Sequence record: NC_024790.1
DNA: 64,000 bases
Source of the DNA: Escherichia phage vB_EcoP_PhAPEC7
Direction: 5' to 3' (one strand)
Both the position numbers and the translations under genes were made by a program. Below are positions 85 to 47,012 of the stretch, one piece after another (the stretch's first letter is position 1; each line of letters begins with the position of its first letter). Under the pieces are notes generated by a model. The model was not told the origin of the DNA. It saw nothing but the letters and a program-made list of their open reading frames with translations, and made no database searches.

Positions 85-99
85 GCATGCTCCGCATGT
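85..99 (+). promoter_or_regulatory. Candidate vRNAP-type early promoter hairpin (5-bp stem CATGC/GCATG, 3-nt loop; template-strand loop GGA)
   Basis: Perfect inverted repeat 86-90/94-98 with 3-nt spacer, about 45 nt upstream of the first early ORF. N4 virion RNAP is known to use template-strand hairpins with 5-7 bp stem and 3-nt loop. Consensus not verified. Confidence 0.3.
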
Positions 100-141
100 T
101 ATGGACATGTCGTCCTATCATCAACTATTGGAGCTATCATC

Positions 142-465: not shown

Positions 466-474
466 ATCAATATA

Positions 475-500
475 GGAGGCTCTTCGGAGTCTCCTTTTAT
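475..500 (+). terminator. Intrinsic terminator
   Basis: GGAGGCTC-TTCG-GAGTCTCC stem-loop followed by TTTTAT. Confidence 0.6.
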
Positions 501-903: not shown

Positions 904-1036
904 AAACCAGACGCTCCGCGTCTTATGGATGATGTAAATGCATCCACTAATCATTGAAATCTTAAGTCTTTTCTTGGGTTTAGTCACCGACGGACAAACC
1001 CATAAATCAAACAATCATTTATCTGGAGAGTACAAA

Positions 1037-4347: not shown

Positions 4348-4724
4348 AAGAAATCTTCGTATTCGGTAGTAATTTAGCAGGTCGTCACGGTGCTGGTGCA
4401 GCGAAAGTTGCATATAAGAAACATGGTGCACGTTATGGAATGGGAGTTGGTCACTATGGTTTCAGCTATGCAATCCCAACCAAAGACCAGAACATCAAGA
4501 CCATGAAACTGGATGACATCAAAGTATTCGTAGATGCTTTCATCCTATATGCAGCATCACACCCAGAGTGGGACTTTAAAGTAACACGCATTGGTTGTGG
4601 ATTGGCTGGTTATAAGGATGAAGAAATTGCTCCTATGTTTGCCAATGCTACAGGCAATGTCATGTTTGACGAAGCCTGGAAGCCTATTCTGGGAAATGAT
4701 TATATCTACTGGGGAACCTTCTAA
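4338..4724 (+). CDS. Conserved protein with Gly-rich loop FVFGSNLAGRHGAGAA (128 aa)
   Basis: Rossmann-like Gly-rich motif; family not resolved. Confidence 0.45.
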   Translation: MQMKEIFVFGSNLAGRHGAGAAKVAYKKHGARYGMGVGHYGFSYAIPTKDQNIKTMKLDDIKVFVDAFILYAASHPEWDFKVTRIGCGLAGYKDEEIAPMFANATGNVMFDEAWKPILGNDYIYWGTF

Positions 4725-4984: not shown

Positions 4985-5037
4985 GTAATAGCTGCTCCGC
5001 AGCTTTTGGTTATTAATAACATTTAGGAGAATATGCG

Positions 5038-5856
5038 ATGTACTCATCTATTGAACATCAGAAGCAGCTTGAAGTCCTATTCAATAAAAATCAATTACTG
5101 CCTCGCATGAGGAAGGAATTCGAGGACTCCAAAGAAATTGACTTTAAGGCATTCGCTGCCTATTTAAAAATTGATTATAAGCTGCTCATTGATGCAATGG
5201 TGCAGATTGCCCTACATAAACGTGCTGACATCCAGACTATGATTGGCTCTCTCATGAGTCACTCAGATGATGCTCAGTACATCGCTGACTGTCTATATAA
5301 GATGGCAGAGAATGACTGCTTCAACTATGACCCTACCATCGACAAGTTCGGTGTTATCTACGAGATTAGTGAAGATGTTCAGATGGAACTGGAAGCATTC
5401 CAGTATCCATTACCTATCGTAAGTGCCCCTAATCCTGTCAGAACTAACAAGGATACTGGTTACTACCAGACTAAAGGAAGCATCATCCTCAAGAAGAACC
5501 ATCATGAGATGGATGTCTGCCTTGACCACATCAACCGTATGAACAACCAACGTCTCTGTATTAACTGGGACGTTGCTAACTATGTAAAAGACTCTCGTCC
5601 TAACATGGATAAACCTAAAGAAGGTGAAACCCGTCAGGACTATGAGAAACGTGTTAAAGCCTTTGAAAAGTACAGTCGTACTGCTAAGGAAGTAATGGAG
5701 TTAGTGACTCAGGAAGGTAATAACTTCTCACTGGGTCACAAATATGACAAACGTGGGCGTACTTACGCTCAGGGCTACCACATTAACTATCAGGGAACCA
5801 GCTACAACAAAGCTGTACTGGAGTTCGCTGAGAAGGAGTTAGTAAATGAAGACTAA
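5038..5856 (+). CDS. T7-like RNA polymerase, N-terminal/small subunit (N4 RNAPII gp15-like, 272 aa)
   Basis: Lies directly upstream of the catalytic subunit; sizes 272 + 405 aa match the recalled N4 RNAPII heterodimer (about 269 + 404 aa). Confidence 0.55.
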   Translation: MYSSIEHQKQLEVLFNKNQLLPRMRKEFEDSKEIDFKAFAAYLKIDYKLLIDAMVQIALHKRADIQTMIGSLMSHSDDAQYIADCLYKMAENDCFNYDPTIDKFGVIYEISEDVQMELEAFQYPLPIVSAPNPVRTNKDTGYYQTKGSIILKKNHHEMDVCLDHINRMNNQRLCINWDVANYVKDSRPNMDKPKEGETRQDYEKRVKAFEKYSRTAKEVMELVTQEGNNFSLGHKYDKRGRTYAQGYHINYQGTSYNKAVLEFAEKELVNED

Positions 5857-6007
5857 CATTGGTTCCTATGAGTTATGGGTTAATGAAGAGTGTGTCTATT
5901 CAGGTACGTATGTGAAGTGCTTATACTTTGAGAAGCTTTACAAGCTTAAGAACCCTAAGAATAAAACCATTATTTACAAACTATCCGCCGACGTAGTAAC
6001 TAACTAA
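5846..6007 (+). CDS. Small ORF (53 aa) between the RNAP subunit genes
   Basis: ATG overlaps stop of upstream gene, AGGAG 8 nt upstream; below the track length cut-off. Confidence 0.3.
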   Translation: MKTNIGSYELWVNEECVYSGTYVKCLYFEKLYKLKNPKNKTIIYKLSADVVTN

Positions 6008-36612: not shown

Positions 36613-36643
36613 AAGCCCCTCATTAGAGGGGCTTTTTTATTTT
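36613..36643. terminator. Terminator between convergent plus- and minus-strand transcription units
   Basis: AAGCCCCTC-ATTA-GAGGGGCTT with T-runs; sits between stop 36603 (+) and stop 36642 (-). Confidence 0.7.
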
Positions 36644-39600
36644 AGTTTACTAAGTTCATCCAAGGGTTCAGGTTGTGAGCACGAAGCCCTTGACCAAAGC
36701 CCCATGAGTAATCCAGCCCACCCTTAGCAGCAATGCTAAAGATGTTGTCCTGAATAGGTAAGCCAACATTACCAAACATGGTAGGAGTTGGAGCCAGCAT
36801 TGCCATTGCTGCATGTACCGGGTTGTTACGAATCATGGATACTGCAACTTTTGCAGAACGGATCTTAAAGTTGTAGAACCACATTAAACCAACGCTTTCC
36901 ATATACCCACGGAAGCGACCCGGCAGACGGTCATAGTTAATGAACTCTTCAGTTACACGTCCCAGTGCTTCTTCACGAGTCTTACCTTTACGCTGGGTCA
37001 GCTCATCATAGATGATTGCTTTAGCGATAAAGTCAGAGTACTCAACTGTCTTCTGGATACCCTGGAACAGAGCAGTATCCTTAGTAATAAGTGCATAGCG
37101 ACCAGCAGTACGTACAGACTTAGGTAACTTATCAGCCAGTTTCTCCATGTATTCGTGAAGTTTACCTTCGGTAATCAGGATGTCATCACGACCGATACCA
37201 GCATCTGCAATTGAAGAGAACTCACCTGCTTCTAACAGAGGCCATATACTCATACGCTTATGACTATCAGTAATGGACTGAATCTCAGCCTTAAGTTTAC
37301 GAATCTGGTTCGGGTTAGTAGCTGCACGTAATTCTGCTTCTGCATCTACCTGACGCAGACGAGATTTAAGGTACTGGTTAATCTCAGCAGTTTTCTGTGG
37401 AATGCTCTTAGCAATGTTCTTAACCGGTACACCACGAGCAACCATTTGGTAAAGGTTAGCCAAGAAGTTAACGGCAGGTACGACTACTGACTTAACTACA
37501 ATCAGAGTCTTAGCTTCTTTAACTAAGTTCTGAACCAGGTTCTCACCACCCATTGTGTACTTATAAGCACGGTTGCCAAATACACCCAGCATAGCTTTCT
37601 TGAAGGTATCCAGTGTTTCCGGGGACCAACGAGAATTACCAGACCAAGCATCACCTACAGAAGCTGCACGATAACCAAGTGCATCATTAAGCATGTCACG
37701 ACGCACCCACAATTCACCCTCACCGAACAAACTCTCTGCTTTCTGACGTGTTTCACTGTTCATCAGCTTAAGAGCATCAGCAGTTACTGGGTCCAGTTTA
37801 GAACCAAGAAGGTTAACGTACTGGGACTTATTAGAGGCAGACATCTTAATGTCATTCTCATACATGCTATGCAGGTTCTCAATCAGCATATCGTTGAAAC
37901 GCTGAGCCTTAGCTTCTTCCACCTGACGACCACGCCATATACCAATTGCACGGGCAAGATGGTTCTCACCTTCAATATGCTTCAGCATGTTAGGGTCAAT
38001 GGATTGCTCATAGGCAACCACATTACCTTTATCATCATATACAGGCAGGAGTGGTTCATTACCACGTTCACCACGAGCCAGTGCTTTAGTGATACGGTCT
38101 ACGGAAGGCTTGTCAGTGATACGACCAGCTACCATGGAACCCATCGTAAAGCCTGTGCCGAGGTCTACGCCACCAGCAGTATCACGAACGTTCTGTAGGA
38201 TACCCTGTGAGAATGGAGCCTGTGCCTGTACCGGTGCGAAGTAGTAGCTACGTGCCGGACCACGGTTAGCAGAGCTACCCTGATAAGTACCCAGACGTAC
38301 ATAAGATTTCTCAATCAAATCAGCAAACTGATTATCTTCAGCAACAATCAGATTAACACCCTGTTTGTTCTCACTAGGGATATGCCCTTTGTACTGGTTC
38401 AGGGTTGCACGCATATCAGATTTGGCTTTAGCCATTTCATCTTTACGTTGACCAACTAGATAAGAGGTAGCAAAGTCCATCCCATCAACTTCTGTCTGAG
38501 CCAGTGAAGATAACATCTCACGGTCGGACTTGTTCATTGCTTCCAGTGCATACAAAGTAATCAGCTTATCCAGTTGAGCTACATCTACAGTAGAGCGAGC
38601 AGCCTGACGTTCACCCAGCATACGAGAGATTGCAGTAGCATTACGCAGCAGGTTATTACCGACTGTACCGTTAATCATGTACTGAGCCAGTTGCTTAGAT
38701 TTACGGTTAATCAGGGGCCAGTTACGACCAGCTTGCTTCTGCAAATCTGCTTCCAGCTTGTTCACTTCACGGTCAACAATCTTCTGGTCAGATAGCAGGT
38801 CACGGATTTCAGCCAGAGACATGGTGTCACGCAGAACAGCTAAGTCAGTTTTACCCATACCAGTGTGCATTGCTTTCCACTCATCGTTAGTCAGCTTACG
38901 GCTGAATTTAGATGCGATAGTAGTAGGCAGGTGTTCACGGAATTGCTGACGGTCTGCCTGTACCTGTGCACGAACTGCTTTAATCAAATCGTATACAGAA
39001 GCATTGCTCTTAGTACGACCGGTTAAGTCATTAATCAAGTCGTGGAAAGGTTGCCATACCTTACCCTGGTTCATTGCAGCCATAACACCTTCAGCTACGA
39101 TTGCACCATTCTTCTCTGTAGCAATGGCAGCTACCAGTTGTGCAGCATGAGCAGCACCTTTTACTAATGGATTCTTGGTATTGGCTGCAACTTCACGAGC
39201 ACTTTCTAAAGCACGGGTAGACAGTGCATCAATAGAATCCACCAGATACTGGTTAGCACGGTCGATAGCATTACCACTAGGAGTAGCAACGGAATCATAG
39301 AATGACTGTGCATTAAGGCTAGTCTGCATGATTGTCTGAGCCAGTGCATCCATACCTTCCTGTACGTTGGTAGCTTTGGTATCACCTGCTACACGGGCAT
39401 TCAAACTAGACATTGCAGCAGTACCGATGTTAGTCAGCATTGCATCAACGGTATTCCCAGATTTCTTATCTGCTTTCATAACAGGAATGTTAGCCAGTAC
39501 ATTACGCACCTCTTCACTTACCATTGCCAGACCAACAAAAGTAGGCAGTAAGGAAGAACGACCCTGTGCGTCAAACTCAATATTGTTAGCACCCATGATG

Positions 39601-42600
39601 GTATCGAACTTCTGTTGAGCATAGTAACGGTCAGCAGGGTTAGTACTATCTGGGTCAGCCATGAATGATTCAACGGTCAGGTTCTTAGTGACGTGTGCAT
39701 AGTATTCCTGTGCACGAGAAAGAGCAGCCGGACTAATAGCAGCTTCAGTAGCCAGTGCAGCAACGATATTAGTGAACAGTCGCTGTTCCTGCATATTCAT
39801 AGTGAAGCCATGAGCCTGAACATCACGAGTTACTTTAGTTGCATTCACTACTGCATCAGAGAACTTACCTTTACGAATTACTTGCTGTACTGGTTCAGAA
39901 CCAATGTAGTTAATAATCAGCTTATCAAAGGTCTGTCCCAGCTCTTCCAGACGAGTATTGTCACCATACGCCTTGTTATGGAACAAGGTAGTGTCTTTGG
40001 ATACAGCAGCCGTAGGAGCCTGTCCACGCATAACCACAGATGAGTTAAACAGTAAGCCAGAGAACATATCATCTGCATTAGCAGGTGCTTTCTTGCGACC
40101 AAATACCAGACGTTTGATTGCCTCATATACAGACTGAACCATAGTTTTCAGTGCTGTGGTTTTCTTCTGCTTACCAATCAGTTCACGGTTAGTTAAGCCC
40201 CAAGCCATATACTCATTCAGTGCAGCAGCTTTAGCCATTGCTGGTTCAATAAAGCCATTAGACAAGTGACCGTTAATAGTATTAAGTGCATCAGCATATG
40301 CTTCACGTACTGCCGGAGATTCATTCTTAACATCCAGAGTACGGAACTGGTTCATCAAGTCTTCAATATTCTGGATTGCTTCATTAGGAGTACCCTCATA
40401 GTGAGCCAGTACGGATTCAAAAGTGGAAGCATGTACCAATTCATGAACCAGAGTCTCTAAGGAAGAGGTAACTAAGTAGATGGTCTTATCATCAAAGTTA
40501 GTCCAGCCATATGCATTACCAGCTTCGGCAGCTTCAATATCTTTTGGTGCTGGGCGAGTAATGTTCTTCTCAATAGCATAAGCATCCAGTTGAGCAGGAG
40601 TACCGTAAACAACCTTATAGTCTTTGGCAGCAAGGGATTTCTGTACTTCTTTCAATACTGCTTGCTGTTCAGGAGTCATCTCTTTAGCCAGTTTAGAAAT
40701 GGCAGTATTGGACAACAGACGTACACCAGACTTAAGTACACGACCAACCTGTTCCATCGCTGGTACTTCTTTCACTGGTTCTGCTTTAGCAGCACGTACT
40801 GCATTACGACGCTTATTTAATTCAGCATCAAACAGCTCGTTCAGCTTAGCTACTTGCTGGTCTACAGTCAGACCTTCCAGAGAAATTTTACCGTTATTCA
40901 CATATGGAGCACCTACAGCAGCCATCTGGTCAACAGTGGTCTGTACCTGGTTCATTACTTTGTGGCGAATATCTACACCCAGAGCAATATTACGTAGGTT
41001 ACGTTCAATCTGTTCAGCACCTGCACGAAGTAAGTCATCGGTAGCACCCTCACGTTGGTCATATTCCAGAGCAGACTTAGCGATAGCCTGTTTGGTTTCA
41101 TCTGACAGTTTGCTGAAGTCTACATTCTTCATGAACTTAGCGTAGGAGTCATAAACATTCTTGATAGGGTTCCCCTGCCAGGAAGTGTATACAGCCTCAT
41201 TTGCTTTACGACTCGCATCAGTGATGTCGTTGATACCAATGTTCATACCATCAAAGATTTTCAGGGTATTCTTCGGTGCACCTTTCATAGTAGAAAGAGT
41301 CTGCATCATCATGCCATCACCAGTACCGATGGTCATAAATGGAATACCTGCAACACCTGCTTGTGAAGGAGCATAGATGCTCATTGGCACACGCATACGG
41401 TCATCTAAGTTGGTAGCCAGTACTTGGTTAGCAACATCAGTATTCTCACTACCAGCAATGTAGAAAGTCTGTGAACCAGTCTCAATCATTGGAGCCAGTG
41501 GAGATAATGATTCCTGGATTTCATTCAGTTCTTTCTGTGTTAAGAAATCACCCTTCTTCCAGGTTGGGTCTTTTTCTTTTTCTGCCAACTTAGTCTGTAC
41601 TGCTTGCTGGAACATATCCTGCAATACCAGAGACTGAATCTGAGTAGCCTTCTGCAAGTTCTCGGTAGAGTGCATCAGACCTTCACCAACAGTATTACGA
41701 ATACCAGTTCGCATTGGTTCAACGAACAGGTGGAGCATGTTCTCCTGTAAGTTCTTCAGGGCATTACCAGATACGGTAAATTTCTGAGGGTCTAACTTAC
41801 CAGTCAGAGCACCATCTACCTGCTGAATAGACAATTCACCTTTACGCATAACTGGAACATTGCCTGTCAGTGCTTCCATAGAAGTAAGGAAAGTATCCAG
41901 CATAGCCTGAGCATCAGCCTCAGACGCAGCCTCCTTACCAAACATTGCCATAGCTGGGGAAATGCTAGGGTCAGCAGCCCGTGCTTGCAGAACGTCACTG
42001 AAGCGTTCGTAGATGGTGTCAGTAATTGCACTGACCATCTTCCCAGCAATACCACGAGCACCGGAACCATAGATGGTAATGGTCAGTGGGTTTTTAGCGA
42101 TACCACGTTTCAGGTCCAGAGTACCATCTTCATTCAGATTAAAGTCTTTAATGAACAGGTCCATTAACTTCTGAAGATGATTCATCTGGCTCATAACCGG
42201 AACGTTGTTACGGTAAGTAGTACGTAACTCATTTAGTGCTTGTTGCAGACCATTAGTAGATGCTTCATACAGGTCAACACTGTCATCCTGTGAACGATGT
42301 TCGTTCATAGTCTTACCGGCTTTACCGAAGAACAGACCACCTTTAGCAGTATTCTTAATCCAGTCTGGAGTGAACTTACCCCCAGTCATTAATACCATTG
42401 CGTTAATCGGGCCGTTGGTTACACCATCAGCTTCAACGTACAGTGGAGTAGTAAAGTTGGCACGGTCATCACTGTTCAGGTAACGGGCATATTCCATCAG
42501 AGCCATGAGAGCTACGAAGGATTTGTCACCACCCAGGGAGGTCTTCAGAATATCTACTGCATCAGCAGGTAAGTGACCAGACTTATCGAACTCAACCATC

Positions 42601-45600
42601 ATATCAACAGCAGGTTTCAGATTACCTTCCAGAGCCTTGGTCAACTTTTCAGACATAGCTTCACGGGACATGTTATGTACCTTGATGCCTAATGCCTGAG
42701 CCAGTCCTAACTGGAAGTCAGAGACTGCTTGGCTGTTTTCATTACTCAAGTCAATAGTAGAGAAGGTTGGCAGAATTGCTTCACGAACCAGCTTACTGGA
42801 TTGTGGGTTATTCTTACCTAGCATCTGCATACGACCTACACGGGTCATGTTGTAACCATAGTGAATAGGAGTATCCAGACCATTCTCTTGTTCCCGTATC
42901 TGGCTGATTACACCAAACAAGGAATCATATGCCATAGACACGGACAGGTTTTTACCCTCCAGTGACTTAGCAGTGTTCATATTCAACAGTTCTGGATTAA
43001 GAGAACCAGCACCCATCAGTTCCAGAATGTTGTCACGACCTAAAGCTTCATAGAAGTTAACCATCGGCATGTGTACACGGAACTCAGTAGCTTGTTCAGC
43101 TTTCAGTGCAGCTTTCTGTTCCGGGGTATTTTTAACAGCAGGGTTACGTAACTGAGTTTGAGCCACGGAAGGAATGTCGTCACCGAAGTACATTTTCTCT
43201 TCTGGTTCTAAGAGGACAGCTTCCTCAATAGCAGTAGGGAATTTGTTAATGGCATCATTGTCATCCAGCTTCTCAATGGTATACAGACCAACAGTCTTAT
43301 TAGAGTCTGGGTCAATCTCAGACACATCCAGCATAGACTCTTTAACTTCACCCATTTCAATGAGGGAAGACAGAATCTCTGTAGCCATTGCCATTGGGAT
43401 ACCTTTTGTGTAACCCAGTGGTGCATTAGGATTACGATTCAAACCCCAATAAGATTCAATCTTCTGAGCCAGTGAGTTAGTAGCTTCGACCAGAGTCTGG
43501 GCATTCTCAAACTCAGCCAGAATACCTTCTGGTAACAGAGATGCTTCCACACCAGTAATAGCAGCTACGTCTTTCATGTCTTTAATGGCAGCATTCTGTG
43601 TAGCAGTCAGTCGCCATTGCAGTCCGGCAAGTACAGCAGTCTCTAACAACTGATCATTGAACTTAAAGGTGTCACCATCTCGTTCAACGATATTCAGCAA
43701 TTTGCCACCTACCCAACGGTTAGCTTCAGTACCTTCTGCAAAACGTTTACCAACGTTCTTATTAGCAAGGAACTTAACCAGACGTTCAGACAAAGTAGTC
43801 TTCAGAGTTTCCCCAAAGTCCATCAAGTCCTGATAACGTTTCATCACATCACTAGTGAGAGCGTTATTTTCTTTTTGAGTGAATGCCTCAAAGCGAGCAG
43901 CAGAAGACAGTGCTTGCTTAATATCAGCCAAAGGAGATTCAGAACCAATGGTACGGGACTTAGGTTCTTCCGGTAGGGTAAATGCTTTCAGGAACTGGTT
44001 CGGTGTCTTTTCATTGTTATAGACAGGGAACACTGTTTCCATTTCTGTTTTAGTTTCAGCTACTTCCTGGATGGTATCCTCATTAGTGAGGGTAGCTTCT
44101 ACTGTTTCGGGCTTAGTAGTAGAGACTTCTTCTGCTTTTGGACTAGTCTCCTTAGTAGGAGCAGTCTTATTTTCTACCACTGGTTTAGCTTTAGGCTGTA
44201 CAGTAGTAGTGTCCTCTTGCACTGGTGCAGGAGTTTCATCAACCTGATTCACTGGTTCATTAGTCTGTTGAGACTGAGTGGCATCAAGACCACCTTGACG
44301 GAACTCTTTAACTACCTGGGCAACTGGCTTGTTCAGACGTGAATCCAACGAGGTAACTTTCACATGAGAAACATTAAGCTCCGGGTAAGCCGTAGCAAGT
44401 GCGTTAGCAATATCAGCTACGGTTTTGGCCTCCAGTCCTACTTGCTGGGCAAACTTAACAGACTTGGTATCGTAAGGATTGACACCGAGGCCAGTACGAC
44501 TACGTACCCATTCACGGGAAGGCGAGAGAGCCTGATAATGGACAGACTTATTCTTATCCGCATTCCCCGAAATCAGATGCTCATTCAACGCTCCGACCTT
44601 ATTCTGCATGTGCTGGGCGAACTTCATAAAGTCGCTCAGATAAGCGGAGGCCAAATCGAAGTTACCAGAGTTATACGCAGAACGAATGCGTTTCGCATGT
44701 TGCAACGCAGAGTACTGTCCTTCATTAGAACGAGACTCATCGGTTTTAATCTGTTTACTAACAATGTCCTGAGGACGTAAGCCCAGTTCTTCTGCTTTAG
44801 CGTCGAACTCACGTGCACCCTGTAACAAGGCAGCAGCAGATTGCAGGGCAGCACGTTGACGATTCCCTAATGTAATCTTACCTTCACTTGCATGTTTAAG
44901 AACCATGTTCACTGAATCTGCATCCAGTACTTCTGGAGACACATCAGCAGCCATAGCAATGTTGTTTGCTTGGGCTTGGTTAGCTTCTTCAGTAGCTTTC
45001 AGTTTACCTGCCTCAGCCTGTTCCTGAATCATGGAATGGATAGCACGGAATGCACGAAGTACTTTAGGGGTATTCTGTACGTTAGCCATCAGGCCGGAGA
45101 ACTGGTCTACGATTGCAGCAGCAGGGGAACCTTGTTCCAGATTAGCCAGAGCACCTGGGTCACGGTTAATGAAGTTATCCATAGACATGATGTTGTCATA
45201 CATCTGAATTGCAGCTTCCATTTGAACGTTAGGGTCTTCGGCAGTATTAACCAAGTCAGCCATCTTCTGAATAGCTTCTACACGGTTAGTGGAACCAGAA
45301 ACAGCTTCACGGATTACTGGGTTAACTTGTTCCAATTCTACTGGGTCAAACTTCATTGCCTGAGTTAAATCAGCAGCATACTGGGTAGCAGCAGCTTTCT
45401 CTTCTGGAGTGATATCCATTGCATCTACTGCTTCTTGTACAGTTGCTTGTGCTTGCTCTGCTTGAGCAGCAGCTTCCTGTGCAGCAGCATTAACCGTAGC
45501 ATCAGCTACAGGGGATGCTTGTTCATTACGCTTAGCAACTTCTTCACCACGTTGAACCAGGATGTTAGTAAGGGGAGATGTAGCTTTTGCTAATGTTTTA

Positions 45601-47012
45601 CCAACCAGAGAAGCACCAGCCAGAGTAGTACGAAGAGTAGGACCAGCAGCAGCACCGGCAGCTTTAACAGTTGCACCAGGAGCCTGAGCAACACCAGCAC
45701 TACCGAAGCCATAGAGTGCACCCAGACCTGCTTGCTCACCGACTCCCTTGAGGGTATCTCGGGATGCATCAACATTCTCTTTGATTGCAGTGTTTTGTGC
45801 GAACTGACCAAAGCCTGACTGAATACCTTCCTCTACAGTTTCACGCAGCATATTAGAACCAGCACCAGCCAGTGAACCTACCTTAAGTGGGTTAAGTTCA
45901 AATCGAGATACCAGTGGACCGGTAGCAGCAGCAACTGGAGCAGTTAAGCCAGCAGCAGTAATACCTGTTTCAGATGCAGTCTGACGACGTGCTTCATCAG
46001 GAGATAAACCATCAGCAATATGTTGTTGGTAAACAGGAGACTTACTTGCCAGTTCTTGATGGGACATCTTCATGATTTCAGAAGCAGTCTGTTGGTATGC
46101 ACCACCAGCTTCCATGCCACCGATTGCAATAGCAGGTGCAACAACACGACCAGCAGACAATGCAACCTGTGCAGGGCGTGAACCTAATCCAGCAGCTAAG
46201 GTAATACCCTTAACAGCTTTATCACCACCTACCATTACTTTACCGAGTGCAGATACACCACGGATAAGTGGACCACCAGTAAAGAGGGAACCAACACCTT
46301 CACTAAGTCCGTCGGAAGCAGCCATACCATTATCAAGTGTATTAGCAACAGAATCGAAAGCATCACGACCAATACGAGACAGGGAGGCAACCAAATCGCT
46401 CTCCCCGTTTTTGACATCTTGTTCATAGAGTTTCTGGTTCTTTTGAGCAGAAATCTGGTTCTGATTCTGAACAACTTTACGAGTAGCATTCAGTGCATCA
46501 GATTGTAGATTGTGTACACCTTCATTCAACCAATCCATCCCGGAAGCAATGGATGCCCCGGCATTATCATTGACCAGACCTGTGCCAAGAGCAGCAATGC
46601 CCCCAAGGGTATTAGCAACACCAAGACCAACACCAGAAAGAGTATCGCCAAATGCTTCTGCGTTAGTACGTTGTTTAGATAAGTCCTGACGTACAACATC
46701 AGCAGCATTAGCTCGGCTATTAAGAATTTGTAGACCTTGCTCATTACCGTATTTATTAATGATTTCTAATGGGGAGGCTTGAGTGAAATCTGCCTGAAGT
46801 GAACCTGGTTCGAATGCACCGATTCCAAGATTACCTACTCGTCCAGTCTGGAGATTGTAAGCGTTCTCTGGGGTTAATTGGAAAGGGCTTTGCCCTTGTG
46901 CAGCTTGCTTCTGGGAGGTTGCAGTAGAGACATCGACTTGCTTAGCATTAGTGATGCTGTCTGCGAAACCTGCCAGACGGTCAAATGTTGACATAGCATG
47001 TTTCCTGTTCAA
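36642..47012 (-). CDS. Virion-encapsidated RNA polymerase (N4 gp50-like vRNAP, 3,456 aa)
   Basis: Single giant ORF at the start of the late module; size and position match N4 vRNAP (about 3,500 aa). Catalytic motifs not individually checked. Confidence 0.75.
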   Translation of the reverse strand: MNRKHAMSTFDRLAGFADSITNAKQVDVSTATSQKQAAQGQSPFQLTPENAYNLQTGRVGNLGIGAFEPGSLQADFTQASPLEIINKYGNEQGLQILNSRANAADVVRQDLSKQRTNAEAFGDTLSGVGLGVANTLGGIAALGTGLVNDNAGASIASGMDWLNEGVHNLQSDALNATRKVVQNQNQISAQKNQKLYEQDVKNGESDLVASLSRIGRDAFDSVANTLDNGMAASDGLSEGVGSLFTGGPLIRGVSALGKVMVGGDKAVKGITLAAGLGSRPAQVALSAGRVVAPAIAIGGMEAGGAYQQTASEIMKMSHQELASKSPVYQQHIADGLSPDEARRQTASETGITAAGLTAPVAAATGPLVSRFELNPLKVGSLAGAGSNMLRETVEEGIQSGFGQFAQNTAIKENVDASRDTLKGVGEQAGLGALYGFGSAGVAQAPGATVKAAGAAAGPTLRTTLAGASLVGKTLAKATSPLTNILVQRGEEVAKRNEQASPVADATVNAAAQEAAAQAEQAQATVQEAVDAMDITPEEKAAATQYAADLTQAMKFDPVELEQVNPVIREAVSGSTNRVEAIQKMADLVNTAEDPNVQMEAAIQMYDNIMSMDNFINRDPGALANLEQGSPAAAIVDQFSGLMANVQNTPKVLRAFRAIHSMIQEQAEAGKLKATEEANQAQANNIAMAADVSPEVLDADSVNMVLKHASEGKITLGNRQRAALQSAAALLQGAREFDAKAEELGLRPQDIVSKQIKTDESRSNEGQYSALQHAKRIRSAYNSGNFDLASAYLSDFMKFAQHMQNKVGALNEHLISGNADKNKSVHYQALSPSREWVRSRTGLGVNPYDTKSVKFAQQVGLEAKTVADIANALATAYPELNVSHVKVTSLDSRLNKPVAQVVKEFRQGGLDATQSQQTNEPVNQVDETPAPVQEDTTTVQPKAKPVVENKTAPTKETSPKAEEVSTTKPETVEATLTNEDTIQEVAETKTEMETVFPVYNNEKTPNQFLKAFTLPEEPKSRTIGSESPLADIKQALSSAARFEAFTQKENNALTSDVMKRYQDLMDFGETLKTTLSERLVKFLANKNVGKRFAEGTEANRWVGGKLLNIVERDGDTFKFNDQLLETAVLAGLQWRLTATQNAAIKDMKDVAAITGVEASLLPEGILAEFENAQTLVEATNSLAQKIESYWGLNRNPNAPLGYTKGIPMAMATEILSSLIEMGEVKESMLDVSEIDPDSNKTVGLYTIEKLDDNDAINKFPTAIEEAVLLEPEEKMYFGDDIPSVAQTQLRNPAVKNTPEQKAALKAEQATEFRVHMPMVNFYEALGRDNILELMGAGSLNPELLNMNTAKSLEGKNLSVSMAYDSLFGVISQIREQENGLDTPIHYGYNMTRVGRMQMLGKNNPQSSKLVREAILPTFSTIDLSNENSQAVSDFQLGLAQALGIKVHNMSREAMSEKLTKALEGNLKPAVDMMVEFDKSGHLPADAVDILKTSLGGDKSFVALMALMEYARYLNSDDRANFTTPLYVEADGVTNGPINAMVLMTGGKFTPDWIKNTAKGGLFFGKAGKTMNEHRSQDDSVDLYEASTNGLQQALNELRTTYRNNVPVMSQMNHLQKLMDLFIKDFNLNEDGTLDLKRGIAKNPLTITIYGSGARGIAGKMVSAITDTIYERFSDVLQARAADPSISPAMAMFGKEAASEADAQAMLDTFLTSMEALTGNVPVMRKGELSIQQVDGALTGKLDPQKFTVSGNALKNLQENMLHLFVEPMRTGIRNTVGEGLMHSTENLQKATQIQSLVLQDMFQQAVQTKLAEKEKDPTWKKGDFLTQKELNEIQESLSPLAPMIETGSQTFYIAGSENTDVANQVLATNLDDRMRVPMSIYAPSQAGVAGIPFMTIGTGDGMMMQTLSTMKGAPKNTLKIFDGMNIGINDITDASRKANEAVYTSWQGNPIKNVYDSYAKFMKNVDFSKLSDETKQAIAKSALEYDQREGATDDLLRAGAEQIERNLRNIALGVDIRHKVMNQVQTTVDQMAAVGAPYVNNGKISLEGLTVDQQVAKLNELFDAELNKRRNAVRAAKAEPVKEVPAMEQVGRVLKSGVRLLSNTAISKLAKEMTPEQQAVLKEVQKSLAAKDYKVVYGTPAQLDAYAIEKNITRPAPKDIEAAEAGNAYGWTNFDDKTIYLVTSSLETLVHELVHASTFESVLAHYEGTPNEAIQNIEDLMNQFRTLDVKNESPAVREAYADALNTINGHLSNGFIEPAMAKAAALNEYMAWGLTNRELIGKQKKTTALKTMVQSVYEAIKRLVFGRKKAPANADDMFSGLLFNSSVVMRGQAPTAAVSKDTTLFHNKAYGDNTRLEELGQTFDKLIINYIGSEPVQQVIRKGKFSDAVVNATKVTRDVQAHGFTMNMQEQRLFTNIVAALATEAAISPAALSRAQEYYAHVTKNLTVESFMADPDSTNPADRYYAQQKFDTIMGANNIEFDAQGRSSLLPTFVGLAMVSEEVRNVLANIPVMKADKKSGNTVDAMLTNIGTAAMSSLNARVAGDTKATNVQEGMDALAQTIMQTSLNAQSFYDSVATPSGNAIDRANQYLVDSIDALSTRALESAREVAANTKNPLVKGAAHAAQLVAAIATEKNGAIVAEGVMAAMNQGKVWQPFHDLINDLTGRTKSNASVYDLIKAVRAQVQADRQQFREHLPTTIASKFSRKLTNDEWKAMHTGMGKTDLAVLRDTMSLAEIRDLLSDQKIVDREVNKLEADLQKQAGRNWPLINRKSKQLAQYMINGTVGNNLLRNATAISRMLGERQAARSTVDVAQLDKLITLYALEAMNKSDREMLSSLAQTEVDGMDFATSYLVGQRKDEMAKAKSDMRATLNQYKGHIPSENKQGVNLIVAEDNQFADLIEKSYVRLGTYQGSSANRGPARSYYFAPVQAQAPFSQGILQNVRDTAGGVDLGTGFTMGSMVAGRITDKPSVDRITKALARGERGNEPLLPVYDDKGNVVAYEQSIDPNMLKHIEGENHLARAIGIWRGRQVEEAKAQRFNDMLIENLHSMYENDIKMSASNKSQYVNLLGSKLDPVTADALKLMNSETRQKAESLFGEGELWVRRDMLNDALGYRAASVGDAWSGNSRWSPETLDTFKKAMLGVFGNRAYKYTMGGENLVQNLVKEAKTLIVVKSVVVPAVNFLANLYQMVARGVPVKNIAKSIPQKTAEINQYLKSRLRQVDAEAELRAATNPNQIRKLKAEIQSITDSHKRMSIWPLLEAGEFSSIADAGIGRDDILITEGKLHEYMEKLADKLPKSVRTAGRYALITKDTALFQGIQKTVEYSDFIAKAIIYDELTQRKGKTREEALGRVTEEFINYDRLPGRFRGYMESVGLMWFYNFKIRSAKVAVSMIRNNPVHAAMAMLAPTPTMFGNVGLPIQDNIFSIAAKGGLDYSWGFGQGLRAHNLNPWMNLVN

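Follow-up and report, generated by a model that had tools for sequence, protein, structure and literature searches.

A hairpin close to the left end of a 64-kb coliphage sequence is very probably the P1 early promoter of an N4-like virion RNA polymerase

The window, i.e., the whole stretch of 64,000 nucleotides which was analyzed, is identified by homology as the left 64 kb of a Gamaleyavirus coliphage, G7C-like and related to N4. Its first 3 kb match those of G7C-like coliphages at 88–94%, and the nearest relative overall is PhAPEC5 with 97% identity over a 24-kb internal segment. At its very start, TGGCAGGGGCTACACCC, the window can be aligned to the physical left end of N4, TGGTGGGGCTACACCCC. 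By this alignment position 1 corresponds by homology to the left end of N4, that is, to the end of the genome which in N4 enters the cell first. The 141 nt ahead of the first gene were described as a C-rich leader in a preliminary description of this DNA, and the base composition bears this out: C accounts for 42% of positions 1–84 and 35.5% of positions 1–141 vs. 21.7% of the whole window. A record identical to the leader was not found in the phage collection, the best match being 97.9%. A poly-C tract in the leader (32–39, atccccccgg) varies in length; it has 6 C here and 10 in N4, and further contigs of Gamaleyavirus have 6–9.

Three early genes of the N4 type are each preceded by a small hairpin, designated P1 (86–98), P2 (909–923) and P3 (4990–5004). 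All three hairpins are on the + strand, intergenic and within 5.1 kb of the left end, and they are located upstream of the orthologues of gp1, gp2 and gp15, respectively. The gp1 orthologue is the first early gene (142–465, + strand; 66% identity to N4 gp1; phrog_5020) and has a Shine-Dalgarno sequence, GGAG, at 131–134. In N4 gp1 is a cofactor of RNAPII. The gene is followed by a terminator-like RNA hairpin at 474–500 (+ strand; the hairpin proper at 474–495) which possesses a UUCG loop and a U-tract and has a folding energy of −14.7 kcal/mol (z = −5.09); it is absent from the list of the consensus terminator scan. The gp2 orthologue (1037–1423, + strand) matches phrog_4099 over the entire length if the ATG at 1037 is taken as its start, and is predicted to be driven by P2. 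N4 gp2 is the ssDNA-binding cofactor of RNAPII. A second terminator-like hairpin after gp2 (1433–1462, the hairpin at 1433–1452) again has a UUCG tetraloop, a GC-rich stem and a U-tract. Presumably, both UUCG hairpins are vRNAP termination signals which bound the gp1 and gp2 units. The third gene codes for the small subunit of RNAPII (5038–5856, + strand), the orthologue of N4 gp15 (phrog_2166, N4-like RNA polymerase, E = 1e-116), and is the predicted target of P3. Pfam searches gave no match for gp1, gp2, gp15 and an extra ORF located between gp1 and gp2.

This extra ORF (556–903, 115 aa, phrog_24403) is positioned between the gp1 terminator and P2. At this site N4 has no gene and PhAPEC5 has different ones. 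The ORF lacks a hairpin promoter and would thus depend for its expression on read-through of the 474–495 terminator. P2 is shifted to 909 because this ORF, absent from N4, is inserted upstream of it. Just before the ORF an AT-rich inverted repeat, AAGTAGATA-GT-TATCTACTT, is present at 521–540; part of it, ATCTACTTTAA, is common to the sequence just upstream of N4 P2. As to gp2, the longest ORF comprises 161 aa and begins at an ATG at 938, and N4 gp2 is annotated likewise (586). The ATG at 938 is 11 nt past the predicted +1 of P2, inside a 5′ stem-loop and without a Shine-Dalgarno sequence; the ATG at 1037 is preceded by GGAGAG and would give a 128-aa product. The true start of gp2 is probably at 1037.

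Promoters of the host type are scarce in this part of the genome. Between 1 and 7000 five sigma-70-like sites were found vs. 19.9 ± 5.0 expected, an approximately four-fold depletion, and the promoter scan found none in the leader (1–141). The depletion fits with an early region which is not read by the host RNA polymerase. Within the same 7000 nt terminator-like hairpins number 14 vs. 4.2 expected.

On the non-template strand P1 consists of the arms CATGC (86–90) and GCATG (94–98) and the loop TCC (91–93). The inverted repeat that had drawn attention to this locus, 5 bp without a mismatch around a 3-nt spacer, was thus recovered by the hairpin scan of the window. The template (−) strand reads CATGC-GGA-GCATG; its loop is GGA as claimed, the complement of TCC. 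The GC-rich heptamer GCTCCGC spans 89–95 and is centered on −11 (C92). From the end of the hairpin to the first ATG (142) there are 43 nt, close to the earlier estimate of about 45 nt. The proposed extension of the stem by a G-T pair to 85–99 had to be given up: G85·T99 pairs on the non-template (+) strand only, and the corresponding bases of the template strand form an A·C mismatch. As vRNAP reads the template strand, the functional stem of P1 is 5 bp. Relatives which have A85 possess a true sixth pair.

Geometry and folding energy of P1 are by themselves not above chance. Hairpins with a 3-nt loop and 5 or more stem pairs number 120 in the window vs. about 70 in shuffled sequences. The 5-bp hairpin is the minimum-free-energy fold of the template strand, yet at −3.7 kcal/mol its z-score is −0.94 and 38 of 200 shuffles are equally stable, whereby the nearest-neighbor parameters do not model a sheared G:A loop. 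N4 P1, a validated promoter with an experimentally mapped start site, scores similarly in the same test (z = −1.65); P2 and P3 of the window reach −2.90 and −2.89. With z = −0.94 for P1 and only −1.65 for N4 P1 we have dropped thermodynamics as evidence for promoters. A Rho-independent terminator was considered for P1 and rejected: there is no gene upstream, the stem is followed by TTATGG and not by a T-run, and the terminator scan does not list it.

A different picture emerges when the three hairpins are aligned with those of N4. The N4 early region has hairpins with stems of 5–7 bp and 3-nt loops at 90–102 (GTTGC-TTC-GCAAC), 557–573 (AAGAAGC-TCC-GCTTCTT) and 4546–4562 (AAGCTGC-TCC-GCAGCTT), and each of these early promoters is matched by a hairpin in the window. 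P1 can be aligned base for base, acacgttacacGTTGCttcGCAACTTATGGACATG of N4 (90–102) vs. acacgttacgCATGCtccGCATGTTATGGACATG of the window, and the flanks CACGTTAC and TTATGGACATG are identical. N4 P1 (EF056009, 90–102; read by the vRNAP gp50) and window P1 are alike in their distance from the left end, flanks, 5-bp stem, 3-nt loop, C:G closing pair, −8G, GG at +1/+2 and a gp1 orthologue downstream. They differ in the loop, TCC in the window (template GGA) vs. TTC in N4 (template GAA), −11 A or G both being allowed; in the upstream spacer, which is one nt shorter in the window; and in the stem, GTTGC/GCAAC in N4 vs. CATGC/GCATG here. In the two outer pairs of the stem both arms have changed in a compensatory manner, G-C of N4 being C-G in the window and T-A being A-T.

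The sequence determinants of N4 promoters are known in detail. vRNAP recognizes −11A/G, −10G, −8G and +1C of the template; extrusion of the hairpin needs a C:G closing pair plus the 5′G and the 3′A of the loop; RNA synthesis is initiated 8 nt past −8, two GTPs being positioned opposite +1C/+2C of the template (PMC4496689). The template strand of P1 carries every one of these determinants, i.e., −12A, −11G, −10G, the −9C:−13G closing pair, −8G and +1C. The loop, 5′-G(−10) G(−11) A(−12)-3′, supplies the purine at −11 on which W129 of the polymerase stacks. According to the N4 rule transcription from P1 is predicted to start at 103–104 (+ strand), with G103 as +1, 8 nt downstream of −8 (C95), and G104 as +2. 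In an alignment of the promoters (A1) at least 90% of the sequences have G at +1, and G at +2 is invariant.

P2, AGACGC-TCC-GCGTCT at 909–923 (+ strand), is the orthologue of N4 P2 (557–573) upstream of gp2, and its predicted +1 is G927. P3, AGCTGC-TCC-GCAGCT at 4990–5004 (+ strand), is the orthologue of N4 P3 (4546–4562), is located 30 nt upstream of the gene for the small RNAPII subunit, and has a predicted +1 at G5008. P1 had been described as the only element of its geometry upstream of the early operon; this is true of the leader before gene 1, yet in the early region P2 and P3 were overlooked. N4 P2 and P3 share the GCTCCGC core and the template loop GGA with the window promoters; stems are 7 bp in N4 P2 and P3 whereas they are 6 bp in P2 and P3 of the window and 5 bp in P1. 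The terminator scan lists P2 (− strand) and P3 (+ strand) as terminator-like, a reading we reject in view of the shared core, the +1 register, the orthology and the position directly before genes.

How often would such elements arise by chance? The bare heptamer GCTCCGC is expected 2.6–3.9 times and occurs three times, each time within one of the three hairpins; there is no further copy on either strand of the 64 kb. When the full consensus is required, i.e., the core, three more Watson-Crick pairs and GG at +1/+2, the expectation for both strands of the 64 kb drops to 0.003; 0 of 300 first-order Markov simulations contained one, and three are observed. GCTTCGC, the core with the loop of N4 P1, was considered as a fourth class. 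Its four occurrences in the window are unpaired and inside genes, and were set aside as chance.

The window also codes for a polymerase of the matching type. The product of 36642–47012 (− strand), 3456 aa in length, is the orthologue of the N4 vRNAP gp50 and matches the N4 vRNAP chains in PDB over its full length with E = 0. Identity to N4 gp50 is 66% overall and 70% in the mini-vRNAP domain. Alignment to N4 gp50 shows that K114, R119 and W129, the recognition element for −11/−10, are kept, as are D901 and R904 of the specificity loop, which reads −9, −10 and −8, as well as K849, K850 and the catalytic residues. A single promoter-contact residue deviates, K267 in N4 mini-vRNAP numbering, which is N in the window product (residue 1238); the others are identical. 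In N4, K267/K268 of the β-intercalating hairpin melt the base of 7-bp stems. By homology, this is the enzyme which would read the three hairpins.

Relatives were retrieved without specifying the hairpin, using either flank anchors or the downstream proteins gp1, gp15 and gp2. The hairpin is conserved in the related genomes upstream of all three genes. Loci anchored on gp1 have it within 75 nt upstream in 16 of 17 cases; in the remaining one (L015) an insertion separates the hairpin from the gene, and the distance is about 130 nt. All 11 gp2-anchored loci have an upstream hairpin; for gp15 loci of 69% identity or more the count is 12 of 14, here within 120 nt upstream. Among the first 14 loci listed, three of the four which are hairpin-less have a copy further upstream, adjoining inserted sequence. 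Wherever GCTCCGC occurs in the window and in the fetched loci, it is embedded in a gene-sense-strand hairpin whose stem has 5 bp or more.

Conservation extends over all 141 nt of the leader, including the C-rich segment 1–84. That the hairpin region is conserved therefore says little by itself, and the compensatory changes bear the argument. For a covariation analysis every distinct 35-mer with GCTCCGC was collected (n = 38). Constancy of the core within this set is uninformative because it was the selection criterion; the outer stem was free of selection. Stem pairs 3–5 are paired in all 38 sequences, each with 3–4 pair types, the sixth pair in 31 and the seventh in 16. Overall 89% of the cells are paired, whereas sliding of the partner columns leaves 17–47%. 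The score for covariation is 0.478 vs. 0.131 for shuffles and was reached by 0 of 500. Many of the 38 sequences are from close relatives, such that cell counts overstate the number of independent events; a sounder measure are the distinct stem alleles, of which P1 has two, P2-type hairpins at least four and P3-type hairpins at least five. In the N4 structure two pairs of a 7-bp stem are melted by the intercalating hairpin of the polymerase, and 5 bp remain. The covariation pattern fits with a stem of 5–7 bp, with a free choice of stem bases coupled to required pairing, and with melting from 7 to 5 bp. It amounts to a natural covariation test of the biochemical rules established for N4: five pairs are obligatory, pairs 6 and 7 optional, the stem sequence is free and the GC-TCC-GC core fixed.

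The number of copies differs between the relatives. One locus (L007) has four hairpin promoters, PhAPEC5 (L002) has copies at 147, 431 and 4510, and Klebsiella phage KP8 (L059) at 89, 962 and 1225, plus one at 5965 according to the KP8 paper. The extra hairpin promoters immediately precede small genes which are inserted in the early region. Accessory genes of this region seem to bring along their own vRNAP promoter, and the copy number varies from three to at least four among the relatives.

Taken together, orthology to N4 P1, the full set of published sequence determinants, covariation of the stem and the encoded cognate vRNAP support the earlier suggestion of a hairpin promoter for the virion RNA polymerase. 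We infer with high confidence that 86–98 is the P1 early promoter of this N4-like coliphage and active as such.

Related systems put this into perspective. P1–P4 of KP8 have the same core and register and were predicted by homology to N4 (PMC6950046, Table 1); KP8 P1, ACGTTGCTCCGCAACCTATGGA at 89–110, is annotated as 'early promoter' in RefSeq (NC_048700). KP8 differs in that it belongs to the genus Kaypoctavirus, has four copies instead of three and carries another stem allele in P1. In the more distant Pseudomonas phage LUZ7 hairpin promoters are likewise used by an injected vRNAP (PMC3715699). Early starts of LUZ7, preferentially at G, were mapped by ONT-cappable-seq to hairpins which have a conserved 3-nt loop and 4 or more stem pairs (PMC9163698). 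LUZ7 belongs to a distant genus, however, and of its nine mapped early starts some are without hairpins (PMC9163698); the distance from the hairpin center to the start is 13–14 nt vs. 11 nt (−11 to +1) in N4 and in the window. The T7-like single-subunit RNA polymerases belong to the same superfamily and share the specificity loop, the intercalating hairpin and a G start, yet T7 promoters are duplexes of about 20 bp which lack a hairpin and require neither gyrase nor SSB. Judged by these comparisons, window P1 is an unremarkable member of the already known family of N4-type hairpin promoters, and the current understanding of N4-type transcription is unchanged by P1–P3. The main value is in annotation, as three early transcription units are fixed with predicted starts at G103, G927 and G5008.

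By analogy to N4 the following sequence of events may be envisaged. The RNA polymerase packaged in the virion would accompany the left genome end into the cell. As known for N4, the entering DNA would be supercoiled by DNA gyrase of the host, and the inverted repeat would be extruded as a small cruciform. E. coli SSB would then melt the hairpin of the non-template strand, and that of the template, 5′-CATGC-GGA-GCATG-3′, would stay intact as it does in N4. vRNAP would bind the template hairpin with W129 stacking on −11G, K114 and R119 touching −10G and −11G, and D901 and R904 contacting −9C/−10G and −8G. Binding of the hairpin would unlock the polymerase, RNA synthesis would begin with GTP at G103, and gp1 would be transcribed. 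Transcription of gp2 and the RNAPII genes would be driven by P2 and P3. Entry of N4 DNA proceeds to only about 500 bp, after which transcription is needed to draw in the remainder. Of the three hairpins P1 alone is inside such a segment, and for this reason it is probably the first promoter used.

P1 might be orthologous to N4 P1 and nevertheless be weakened or inactive in this particular phage, with early transcription proceeding mainly from P2 and P3. What could raise such a suspicion are G85, which leaves a 5-bp stem, and the exchange of K267 for N: all 12 distinct P1 sequences of close Gamaleyaviruses with the CATGC stem have A85 and hence 6 bp, and an exact search of IMG/VR gave no match for the G85 variant of the window. 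Yet N4 P1 itself functions with a 5-bp stem, the P1 sites of the G7C type and the KP8 type likewise have 5 bp, longer stems are melted to 5 bp by the enzyme in the N4 structure, and the base-specific determinants are all intact. We consider a weakened P1 very unlikely.

Even less probable is that the hairpin serves the terminal repeat, i.e., packaging, end recognition or priming of replication, rather than transcription. It is positioned 86 nt from the left end, its G7C orthologue is inside an annotated terminal repeat (1–1160) and duplicated at the right end, and the leader is conserved as a whole, C-rich 1–84 included. A terminal function of this kind would, however, not account for the fact that two internal sites, just before gp2 and gp15, share the core, the geometry and the +1 register, nor for the extra copies before inserted early genes in relatives, and the start at N4 P1 has been mapped experimentally. 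A dual role, in transcription and in the terminal repeat, is conceivable. Finally, a chance palindrome, possibly with a sigma-70 promoter in the leader doing the actual work, is hardly credible: the abundance of such hairpins in the window and the ordinary fold z-score would allow for it, yet three full-consensus sites face an expectation of 0.003, stem pairs covary and are kept in 38 of 38 sequences, and sigma-70-like sites are missing from 1–141 and depleted in the early region.

With 86–98 taken as P1, a further element of the module deserves mention. The predicted +1 of P1 is the first base of an inverted repeat, GGAC-ATGTC-GTCC at 103–115 (+ strand), and the predicted +1 of P2 is the first base of another, GGATG-ATGTAAATG-CATCC at 927–944 (+ strand). 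Both are kept in N4 and in all relatives, including the KP8-like phages, and one locus (L003) has a compensatory variant, GGATTC/GAATCC. P3-type leaders are without such a repeat. As RNA folds they are weak (z = −0.04 for 103–115 and −1.47 for 927–944), and the case for stem-loops at +1 therefore has to be made from their conservation. The N4-type promoter literature we consulted contains no description of a repeat anchored at +1. Tentatively, and with more doubt than conviction, the repeats may be viewed as a second co-evolving element of the P1 and P2 modules, either as a protective 5′-terminal stem-loop of the RNA or as a hairpin in the template DNA which would affect promoter escape or SSB loading. 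Their position agrees with the predicted start sites.

Small hairpins of another kind are present in the gp2 leader of some relatives. In one locus (L049, about 1100–1150), and in L007 too, this leader carries an insertion, absent from the window, with two GAA-loop mini-hairpins, which in L049 are GTCGC-GAA-GCGAC and AACCATAC-GAA-GTATGGTT.
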